NCBI RefSeq assembly: GCF_054482525.1
Contig: NZ_CM137006.1
Direction: 5' to 3' (one strand)
Length of the DNA stretch: 64,000 nucleotides
How positions within the stretch are numbered: the stretch's first letter is position 1; each line of letters opens with the position of its first letter. A program made the position numbers and the translations under genes. The notes beneath the pieces are model-generated. The model was not told the DNA's origin. It saw only the letters and a list, made by a program, of their open reading frames with translations, and ran no database searches. This document shows positions 3,324 through 64,000 of this stretch, in pieces.

Positions 3324-4133
3324 CTAGTCCGTCACTGTTAATGTGCTATCTGGCTCTGAAAATATTAGCTCATTTAATTTTTGCATGTCATTAGATGAAC
3401 CAGTTATACAACCCTCGGAACAGAATCGAGGTCCTAAAGATGGACCAAAAGCGTTTAAACAACTATGTGTTAAAAATCCATCACGATTATACGTTTCTGT
3501 ATTTGCTGACGGTACTAAACGTATACCATTAGGTTTTCTATTAGTTGCTCCAGGACCATTAACATTCCAGCTCCATACCCCTGGAGGTATTGGGCCTCTA
3601 TTTTGTAAGTGTGTACAACCAGGATTATTTTTACATTGCATATTATTACCATTATTACCAGAGGCGACTGAAATAGTAAGCACACCATAAGAATTATCAT
3701 CACTTGGCGTATCTGAAACGCATGAAAGCATACCTAAAGTTATGCTGTATAAACAGGTCGCTAATCCCAACGGGTCAATATCAGTTATCGGATTCAACGG
3801 ATACTGATAAAAATTCCATCCCCCCTTCAGTCCAATCGGATCCTGAGTGATATACCGCCCCTGCAGCTGGTGCGGGTTCTCTTCATTCAGCAGGTTGCCC
3901 CACTCATCGTATTCTGCGCACCATTCTGTTGCCCCTTCCGTGCTGATAAGCACCAGCGGCAGGCCGCGATGGTCGCAGTGGTACAGGTGGATTTTTCGCG
4001 CCGGCGTGTACACCGGGTCCATCTGGTTTTGCATCTGCGCCACCGTCAGGCCGCACGATGCCAGCCAGCGTCGGCTTTCCTCACTCACCCGGTCAGCCAG
4101 GATTTCACTTTCCAGCCGGTCGAGCATCTGCAC
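3324..4133 (-). CDS. Orphan Rhs C-terminal fragment (core end plus divergent toxin tip); no own ATG start
   Basis: Translation [29 protein letters not shown]...[18 protein letters not shown] is near-identical to the rhsA core end in this window, then diverges after the DPxGL motif into a unique Cys-rich tip; ORF-track start is a GTG that is an internal Val codon in rhsA. Confidence 0.7.
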
Positions 4134-62590: not shown

Positions 62591-63289
62591 ATGATCATAA
62601 AAAAAAGCGGTGGTCGCTGGCAGCTAAGCCTGCTGGTGAGCGTGGTAATCAGTGCCTTTTTTCTCAACACAGCTTACGCCTGGCAACAAGAATATATCGT
62701 TTATACGCAACCCGGACATTCCACAGAGCGTTACACCTGGGATAGCGATCATCAACCTGATTACAACGATATTTTGTCGCAACGTATTCAAAGTAGCCAA
62801 AGGGCGCTGGGACTGGAAGTCAATCTGGCAGAAGAAACCCCTGTGGATGTGACCAGCAGTATGAGTATGGGCTGGAATTTTCCTTTATATGAACAGGTTA
62901 CAACTGGCCCGGTCGCGGCATTACATTACGATGGCACAACCACCTCGATGTATAACGAGTTTGGCGACAGTACTACCACGCTGACCGATCCGTTATGGCA
63001 TGCCAGCGTGAGTACTTTAGGCTGGCGTGTTGACTCCCGGCTTGGCGATCTCCGACCCTGGGCGCAAATCAGCTATAACCAGCAATTTGGCGAGAATATC
63101 TGGAAGGCGCAATCAGGCCTGAGCCGGATGACGGCGACAAACCAGAACGGCAACTGGCTGGATGTCACCGTAGGCGCTGATATGTTGCTCAATCAAAATA
63201 TTGCCGCCTATGCGGCGCTATCTCAGGCAGAAAATACCACTAACAATAGCGACTATCTGTATACGATGGGGGTTAGCGCCAGATTTTAA
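62591..63289 (+). CDS. yhjY: Putative outer-membrane protein
   Basis: About 232-aa ORF with signal peptide (LLVSVVISAFFLNTAYA) and C-terminal Phe typical of beta-barrel proteins; position matches K-12 yhjY as recalled. Confidence 0.85.
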   Translation: MIIKKSGGRWQLSLLVSVVISAFFLNTAYAWQQEYIVYTQPGHSTERYTWDSDHQPDYNDILSQRIQSSQRALGLEVNLAEETPVDVTSSMSMGWNFPLYEQVTTGPVAALHYDGTTTSMYNEFGDSTTTLTDPLWHASVSTLGWRVDSRLGDLRPWAQISYNQQFGENIWKAQSGLSRMTATNQNGNWLDVTVGADMLLNQNIAAYAALSQAENTTNNSDYLYTMGVSARF

Positions 63290-63403
63290 CGTAACAGTCA
63301 CAATTGAAACCATTGAATAACAACGCTTGTGGTGATAGTGGGTGCTAACTCACCAAATAATAAATTTGGTGAATAATTGTCACGTCATTCATTCCTGAAC
63401 TAA

Positions 63404-63434
63404 GGCATTTCATTCCGTTCTGATGGCATTTCAT
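63404..63434 (+). promoter_or_regulatory. Direct repeats GGCATTTCAT-N11-GGCATTTCAT in the yhjX promoter (YpdB-type response-regulator site)
   Basis: Two exact 10-bp direct repeats at 63404..63413 and 63425..63434, about 85-115 bp upstream of the yhjX start; matches the recalled YpdB binding motif. Confidence 0.6.
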
Positions 63435-63517
63435 GCCGTTTTTCCCCAGGCATAAAGTGCACTTCGTTATGGTTGTCGGCAGAGATTTTTCCTTTTTATT
63501 ACTGCAGGAATACTGCC

Positions 63518-64000
63518 ATGACACCTTCAAATTATCAGCGTACCCGCTGGCTGACACTCATCGGTACTATCATTACCCAGTTTGCCCTTGGGTCGGTTTA
63601 TACCTGGAGCCTGTTTAACGGCGCGCTTTCTGCCAAGCTGGATGCGCCGGTAAGCCAGGTCGCTTTCTCTTTCGGCTTGTTAAGTCTGGGGCTGGCAATT
63701 TCATCTTCTGTTGCGGGGAAATTACAGGAACGTTTTGGCGTTAAACGCGTCACTATGGCTTCCGGCATTTTGCTGGGATTAGGCTTCTTCCTGACAGCGC
63801 ATTCTGACAACCTGATGATGCTGTGGTTAAGCGCCGGTGTGCTGGTCGGTCTGGCGGATGGCGCGGGTTACCTGCTGACGCTCTCTAACTGCGTGAAGTG
63901 GTTCCCGGAGCGTAAAGGTCTGATCTCCGCGTTCGCTATCGGTTCTTATGGTCTGGGTAGCCTGGGTTTCAAATTTATCGACACGCAGCTGCTGGAAACG
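63518..64000 (+). CDS. yhjX: MFS transporter (oxalate/formate antiporter family), N-terminal part; continues past window end
   Basis: ATG at 63518; translation MTPSNYQRTRWLTLIGTIITQFALGSVYTWSLFNG... with successive TM helices. Confidence 0.88.
   Translation, partial: MTPSNYQRTRWLTLIGTIITQFALGSVYTWSLFNGALSAKLDAPVSQVAFSFGLLSLGLAISSSVAGKLQERFGVKRVTMASGILLGLGFFLTAHSDNLMMLWLSAGVLVGLADGAGYLLTLSNCVKWFPERKGLISAFAIGSYGLGSLGFKFIDTQLLET

Follow-up and report, generated by a model that had tools for sequence, protein, structure and literature searches.

The two copies of GGCATTTCAT upstream of yhjX constitute, with a probability of about 0.95, the published operator of the response regulator YpdB (also named PyrR), and thus an already known element. 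They are found on the + strand at positions 63404-63434 of the window, the 64,000-nucleotide stretch of DNA analysed in this study, where the sequence between yhjY and yhjX reads GGCATTTCAT-TCCGTTCTGAT-GGCATTTCAT. The original prediction, made from the sequence alone, described two exact 10-bp direct repeats with an 11-bp spacer upstream of yhjX and attributed them to the pyruvate-responsive YpdA/YpdB system. Both copies are present as described (63404-63413 and 63425-63434), and the attribution is borne out by the literature, in which the same GGCATTTCAT sites are assigned to YpdB (PMC4847170) and the stimulus of YpdA/YpdB is given as extracellular pyruvate (PMC4847170; PMC5552118; PMC7660256).

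The repeats are located within the 228-bp intergenic region between yhjY, which is annotated as encoding an autotransporter beta-barrel protein and has its stop codon at 63289, and yhjX, which is annotated as encoding an MFS transporter. The end of the downstream copy is about 83-84 nt from the yhjX start codon (ATG at 63518-63520). The window is E. coli DNA, and the gene order is the same in K-12 (eptB-yhjX-yhjY-tag-yiaC-bisC). A total of 801 bases around the site were matched in 5422 of the 5426 complete E. coli genomes, including seven at 100% identity, and yhjX is annotated at this position in RefSeq in 5422/5426 genomes. Most E. coli yhjX genes now carry the name 'L-lactate MFS transporter' from the NCBI pipeline, a naming that is ahead of the evidence considered here. 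The features discussed below are collected in the table.

Table. Positions of the operator, the predicted promoter elements and the downstream gene in the window
Feature	Position	Strand	Basis or remark
Native part of the published YpdB SPR fragment	63381-63438	+	Oligonucleotide in Table 1 of PMC4847170
Block 0, candidate third phased unit (GTCATTCATTCC)	63384-63395	+	Exact 21-bp register upstream of site A; conservation
Site A, upstream, high-affinity YpdB/PyrR site	63404-63413	+	GGCATTTCAT; conserved on through 63416 (TCC)
11-bp spacer (TCCGTTCTGAT)	63414-63424	+	First three bases (TCC) conserved, rest variable
Site B, downstream, low-affinity, filled after A	63425-63434	+	GGCATTTCAT; conserved on through 63437 (GCC)
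Invariant T-run between site B and the expected -35	63439-63442	+	T in 78-79 of 79 sequences at each position
Predicted -10 hexamer of the yhjX promoter (TATGGT)	63468-63473	+	Cross-species conservation
yhjX, 5' part, MFS transporter gene	63518-64000	+	Pfam MFS_1 at the N-terminus (E=3.5e-12); runs past the window end

The primary paper on the YpdB site of the yhjX promoter is reportedly that of Fried, Behr and Jung 2013 (J Bacteriol 195:807). For the extent of the footprint and the length of the spacer, we relied on the oligonucleotide table of a later study by Behr, Heermann and Jung 2016 (PMC4847170), so both are second-hand with respect to the 2013 work. In the 2016 study, the direct repeat of GGCATTTCAT in PyhjX represents YpdB sites A and B, and the mutant oligonucleotides 'A bs' and 'B bs' of Table 1 swap exactly the upstream and the downstream 10-mer, respectively. 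The native part of the Table 1 oligonucleotide is the 58-nt sequence CGCGTCATTCATTCCTGAACTAAGGCATTTCATTCCGTTCTGATGGCATTTCATGCCG (CGCGTCATTC...CATGCCG), and the fragment was sized to cover all DNase I-protected nucleotides (PMC4847170). This 58-nt sequence is identical to that of K-12. Comparison with the published footprint had been proposed as a check on the prediction, on the understanding that a published site differing from the motif would count against it. The oligonucleotides map base for base on 63381-63438 save for one strain SNP (A for G at 63382), the 11-bp spacer TCCGTTCTGAT included, and the published motif is identical to the one noted here. Apart from this SNP, the site agrees with that of K-12 in both 10-mers, in the 11-bp spacer, in the flanks over the 58 bp and in the gene that follows. 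The divergence between K-12 and this strain amounts to about 3% of intergenic positions, nearly all of which are upstream of 63384.

The published binding data were obtained by SPR with the phosphomimetic variant YpdB-D53E, for which the Kd is about 1.2 nM at site A and about 21 nM at site B (PMC4847170). With the wild-type fragment, SPR distinguished only two binding components. Inactivation of site A abolished all binding, inactivation of site B left a single binding event, and the authors proposed a sequential, cooperative 'AB-BA' mode of binding and release (PMC4847170). The yhjX gene is reported to be the sole direct target of YpdB (PMC4847170; PMC5552118). The motif is recognisable in other genera, in which the E. 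coli promoter is pyruvate-responsive (PMC5552118), and an independent group that uses the names PyrS/PyrR observed a 678-fold induction of yhjX by 3 mM pyruvate (PMC7660256). Given the operator sequence that this strain has in common with K-12, YpdB binding and pyruvate-dependent activation of yhjX would be expected to carry over to it. The re-identification of an experimentally mapped operator provides a positive control for the recognition of operators from sequence alone.

In K-12, for which RefSeq now uses pyrS/pyrR-type names (ypdB = pyrR), the regulator is a 244-amino-acid protein with a Response_reg receiver domain (E=2e-24) and a LytTR domain (E=2.4e-34). Its gene is located about 1.2 Mb from yhjX in K-12, and ypdAB falls outside the window. 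The ypdB/pyrR gene is present in 5422 of the 5426 complete E. coli genomes, and YpdB is presumably present in this strain as well, considering this near-universal occurrence.

The yhjX site, with its 10-nt repeats and 11-nt spacer, fits the general plan of LytTR operators, which have two repeats of 9-11 nt with 11-13 nt between them and no consensus that holds across regulators (PMC4847170). The operators of AgrA, ComE, PlnC/D, VirR and FsrA follow this two-repeat plan as well, although their sequences differ from the yhjX site and they mostly belong to quorum sensing, toxin or bacteriocin genes of Gram-positive bacteria. Within E. coli, BtsR (YehT) is, like YpdB, a receiver-LytTR regulator, and it belongs to a paralogous pyruvate-sensing LytS/LytTR system. 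That system is responsible for high-affinity pyruvate sensing and controls a CstA-family transporter (PMC5552118). As at yhjX, the BtsR site of btsT (yjiY) precedes the promoter of a transporter gene by a short distance and is made up of direct repeats whose starts are 21 bp apart. However, the BtsR motif is unrelated, being an 8-mer (ACC[G/A]CT[C/T]A) with a 13-bp spacer. In the K-12 btsT/yjiY promoter (- strand, 3395-3465 of the retrieved locus), there is a possible third copy, GCCGCTCA, located 20 bp before the pair ACCGCTTA / ACCACTCA. The BtsR control oligonucleotide of the 2016 study also carries GCCGCTCA, ACCGCTTA and ACCACTCA with spacings of 20 and 21 bp (PMC4847170). Judging from these arrangements, a three-unit plan may be common to the BtsR and YpdB operators.

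A pattern search of the window yielded only two exact copies of GGCATTTCAT, which are those of sites A and B, both on the + strand. When one mismatch is allowed, there are seven occurrences (five besides the exact pair), and this is the chance level according to shuffled sequences (mean of 7.9). Exact 10-mer direct-repeat pairs that are 10-40 bp apart occur four times in the window, compared to 1.8 +/- 1.3 expected from first-order Markov simulations, of which 10% reach four. Taken alone, a closely spaced exact repeat of this length is weak evidence. When the two copies are compared in register (period of 21), 15 of 16 positions are identical with a single mismatch (GGCATTTCATTCCGTT versus GGCATTTCATGCCGTT), and the extended form of the repeat is GGCATTTCAT[T/G]CCGTT. 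This is the only in-register pair in the window with at least 15/16 matches, whereas 0.015 such pairs are expected per window. Thus, it is this extended match, together with conservation and the published work, rather than the 10-mers alone, that marks the repeat as more than chance. The absence of the pair from the listing of a general repeat finder is a tool artefact, and the pair was verified both by pattern search and by script.

For comparison across species, yhjX promoters were gathered by a protein-anchored scan with one genome per species. The scan gave 80 loci from about 25 genera of Enterobacteriaceae, among them Escherichia, Citrobacter, Enterobacter, Buttiauxella, Kluyvera, Klebsiella, Kosakonia, Lelliottia, Cedecea, Atlantibacter, Yokenella and Pluralibacter. 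In all 80 loci, the best motif pair is spaced by exactly 21 bp, while the spacers and flanks diverge. An ungapped alignment of the 79 distinct sequences, anchored on site A, reveals three sharply bounded conserved blocks with unconserved DNA between them. Block A has the consensus g-G-C-A-T-T-T-C-A-T-T-C-C (window 63404-63416), and block B has the consensus n-G-C-A-n-t-T-C-A-T-G-C-C (window 63425-63437) followed by an invariant TTTT.

These blocks do not coincide with the published 10-mer at either end. Positions 63405-63416 are nearly invariant in the 79 sequences, but the first G of the 10-mer is weakly conserved (1.06 bits in site A and 0.58 bits in site B) and is often replaced by T. At 63404, 48 of the commonest variants have G and 23 have T. 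At the 3' end, the T/G-C-C that follows the 10-mer and nominally belongs to the spacer is invariant across species, and the form of site B that is kept is nGCAntTCATGCC. The information content is 1.9-2.0 bits at 63414-63416 and 0.2-1.2 bits at 63417-63424. Because the TCC at 63414-63416 is conserved while the rest of the spacer varies, it is assigned to the repeat unit. By conservation, the unit is a 12-mer, GCAnTTCAT(T/G)CC, with a variable spacer of 9 nt, and not the published 10-mer. A recognition unit that is shifted and longer than the one in use would be a refinement for work on LytTR regulators and on pyruvate biosensors built on PyhjX. The original prediction had termed the element conserved core regulation, and this label is fair, with the nuance that the conserved element is larger than two 10-mers. 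Our literature search found no discussion of the 12-nt unit, of a third phased block or of the common G-to-T allele described below, although the 2013 paper may cover the flank.

The third of the conserved blocks, termed block 0, has the consensus G-t-C-a-T-T-C-A-T-t-C-C in the 79 distinct sequences. It shares G-nnn-TTCAT-K-CC with sites A and B, and 9 of 13 positions match when it is compared with site A in register. Its information content is 1.1-2.0 bits at every position and below 0.9 bits in both flanks, and its conservation is on par with that of sites A and B. A fourth phased unit was not detected at -42 from site A, where the information content in the same alignment is below 0.4 bits. 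A full-text search for the block 0 sequence returned only the 2016 oligonucleotide table (PMC4847170), where it is never treated as a motif. The conservation of block 0, its phase and its location within the footprint-sized fragment would speak for a place in the operator. This candidate third unit represents a modest lead beyond the published two-site operator.

Two explanations would take the repeats away from YpdB altogether. If they were a chance or slippage-derived duplication with no function, their exactness would not be surprising, because short-range exact 10-mer pairs are not rare in the window (four versus 1.8 expected). However, an in-register match of 15/16 is expected only 0.015 times per window, the repeats are kept in about 25 genera in which the bases next to them vary, and binding of YpdB has been established experimentally (PMC4847170). 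The conservation pattern and the published binding in effect rule this explanation out. It is very improbable, though less so, that the repeats are read by, or also by, another regulator and that YpdB is not the main reader. Candidates would be an unrelated factor or the LytTR paralogue BtsR, cross-wired with YpdAB. BtsR and YpdB are paralogous and the 21-bp site geometry is common to both, and BtsS/BtsR activity lowers yhjX expression in some conditions (PMC5552118). In contrast, the published BtsR motif (ACCGCTTA / ACCACTCA) is unrelated to GGCATTTCAT, a fragment with the BtsR site served as control DNA in the SPR work on YpdB, and direct binding of YpdB to the very bases at issue has been published (PMC4847170).

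A further explanation extends the two-site operator of YpdB and does not replace it. The working operator would be a triple repeat of the 12-nt units GTCATTCATTCC, GCATTTCATTCC and GCATTTCATGCC with a period of 21 bp and variable spacers of 9 nt. Block 0 would then either bind a third YpdB molecule or serve site A as a flank with an architectural or affinity-enhancing role, which might even be required. We consider this arrangement a real possibility, at somewhat less than even odds. It would account for a block that is as conserved as sites A and B in the 79 sequences, with unconserved DNA on either side, and that stands in exact 21-bp register with the common G-nnn-TTCAT-K-CC. In several promoters of Buttiauxella, Enterobacter, Huaxiibacter and Lelliottia, block 0 is nearer to the published 10-mer than site B is (GGCCATTCAT versus TGCAACTCAT). 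Block 0 is also included in the fragment that covers all DNase I-protected nucleotides, and flanking DNA is known to matter for LytTR regulators, with the yhjX study cited for this (PMC4847170). The btsT (yjiY) promoter likewise shows a possible third copy of the motif of the paralogue BtsR, with spacings of 20 and 21 bp. Against a third specific site, mutation of site A left no YpdB-D53E binding in SPR despite an intact block 0 and site B, and only two binding components were seen on the wild-type fragment (PMC4847170). The conservation of block 0 could also reflect another protein or a requirement for DNA shape, and its novelty is qualified in that the 2013 paper may already describe this flank. 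The most economical reading, which we hold only tentatively, is that block 0 provides a low-specificity or strictly A-dependent contact, or a DNA-shaping flank for site A.

A consensus promoter scan found no complete sigma-70 promoter beside the YpdB sites, and the absence of a full match is expected for an activator-dependent promoter. With the consensus scan being negative, the -10 element was assigned by cross-species conservation. In most of the 79 species sequences, one of the hexamers TATCGT, TATGGT, TATTGT or TATTTT is present, and its distance from site A is constant to within one base. At the position 17 bp upstream of this element (63445-63450), the sequence is CCCAGG, which bears no likeness to TTGACA. 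Transcription would be predicted to start about 7 nt past the -10, near 63480. With such a start, the three units would span roughly -55 to -46 (site B), -76 to -67 (site A) and -96 to -85 (block 0), and all would lie on one face of the helix. The T-run that follows site B might contribute to the contact made by YpdB or to one made by the RNA polymerase alpha-subunit.

According to the published work, external pyruvate renders the kinase YpdA active, a monomer of phospho-YpdB then binds site A, and a second binds site B cooperatively. The 21-bp period would set both YpdB molecules on the same helix face, just upstream of a predicted promoter with a recognisable -10 but no -35 element. According to the published model (PMC4847170) combined with the spacing predicted here, YpdB bound at site B, beside the missing -35, might recruit or stabilise RNA polymerase, and this recruitment would lead to transcription of yhjX.

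Several other elements were considered and rejected. A sigma-54 promoter was suggested by TGGCAT...TGC in some species, but the species with cTGGCATGAAATGC have a GG-to-GC distance of 10, compared to the 12 needed (TGGCAC-N5-TTGC). In addition, the element is absent from E. coli, which reads AGGCATAAAGTGC, and YpdB has no AAA+ domain. A CRP-like site, TGTCAcgtcatTCATT (63377-63392), is a poor match by eye, and conservation across genera is lacking in its left half. Farther upstream, about 60 bp past the yhjY stop codon, there is a perfect 9-bp inverted repeat at 63350-63372 (TCACCAAAT-aataa-ATTTGGTGA), whose K-12 version is imperfect (TTACCAAAT). It was discarded as a second operator or a terminator: other E. 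coli alleles besides that of K-12 also have it in imperfect form, other genera do not conserve it, and it does not resemble a terminator. The inverted repeat is probably not functional.

Within E. coli, 3604 of 5395 matching genomes share the 59-bp operator (63384-63442) of the window without any change. The remaining 1791 genomes fall in a band of 95-99% identity, which corresponds to at most 1-2 mismatches in 59 bp, and the sampled rows of this band are all at 98.3%, or one mismatch in 59. A comparison of seven diverse intergenic alleles shows polymorphism mostly upstream of 63384, with only four variable columns between this position and the ATG. Site A is TGCATTTCAT, with T in place of G at 63404, in all five of the non-identical operator alleles that were examined (MNCRE44, WP7-S18-ESBL-09, STEFF_1, GN04204 and strain 405). 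This imperfect site A occurs in at most about one-third of the sequenced E. coli genomes, ST131-type strains among them. Therefore, the description of the repeats as exact applies to this strain and to K-12 but not to the species as a whole, in which TGCATTTCAT is common. G and T alternate at this base across genera too, so recognition probably does not depend critically on it.

A more drastic change is present in E. coli DX6 (NZ_CP126345.1, 1620-2430 of the retrieved locus), in which an IS1 element is located inside site B, at the equivalent of window positions 63424-63432, with a 9-bp target duplication (TGGCATTTC). The insertion separates site A and a truncated site B (GGCATTTCgg), now roughly 0.8 kb upstream, from an intact GGCATTTCAT beside the core promoter and yhjX. 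Because site A was required for binding in the published work, expression of yhjX in DX6 is probably altered or YpdB-independent.

In nine species, an exact copy of the site B core occurs in inverted orientation (GCATGAAATGC, which is GCATTTCATGC reverse-complemented) at an offset of +46 from site A, in the segment that separates the expected -35 and -10 positions. The counterpart in the window is GCATAAAGTGC (63450-63460). The inverted core is present with 1-2 mismatches in Escherichia, Citrobacter and Buttiauxella, and none is found in Enterobacter, Lelliottia and Klebsiella. It could be a lineage-specific fourth YpdB contact, possibly with a role in autorepression or promoter clearance, or it could simply reflect shared ancestry.

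The predicted yhjX leader (63478-63517) can form a hairpin in which UUCCU (63489-63493) pairs with the Shine-Dalgarno sequence AGGAA (63506-63510), enclosed by an outer GGCAG/CUGCC stem. The fold has a free energy of -10 kcal/mol and a marginal z-score of -1.96. CsrA reportedly acts on yhjX at the post-transcriptional level, an effect for which the GGA of the leader hairpin could be relevant.
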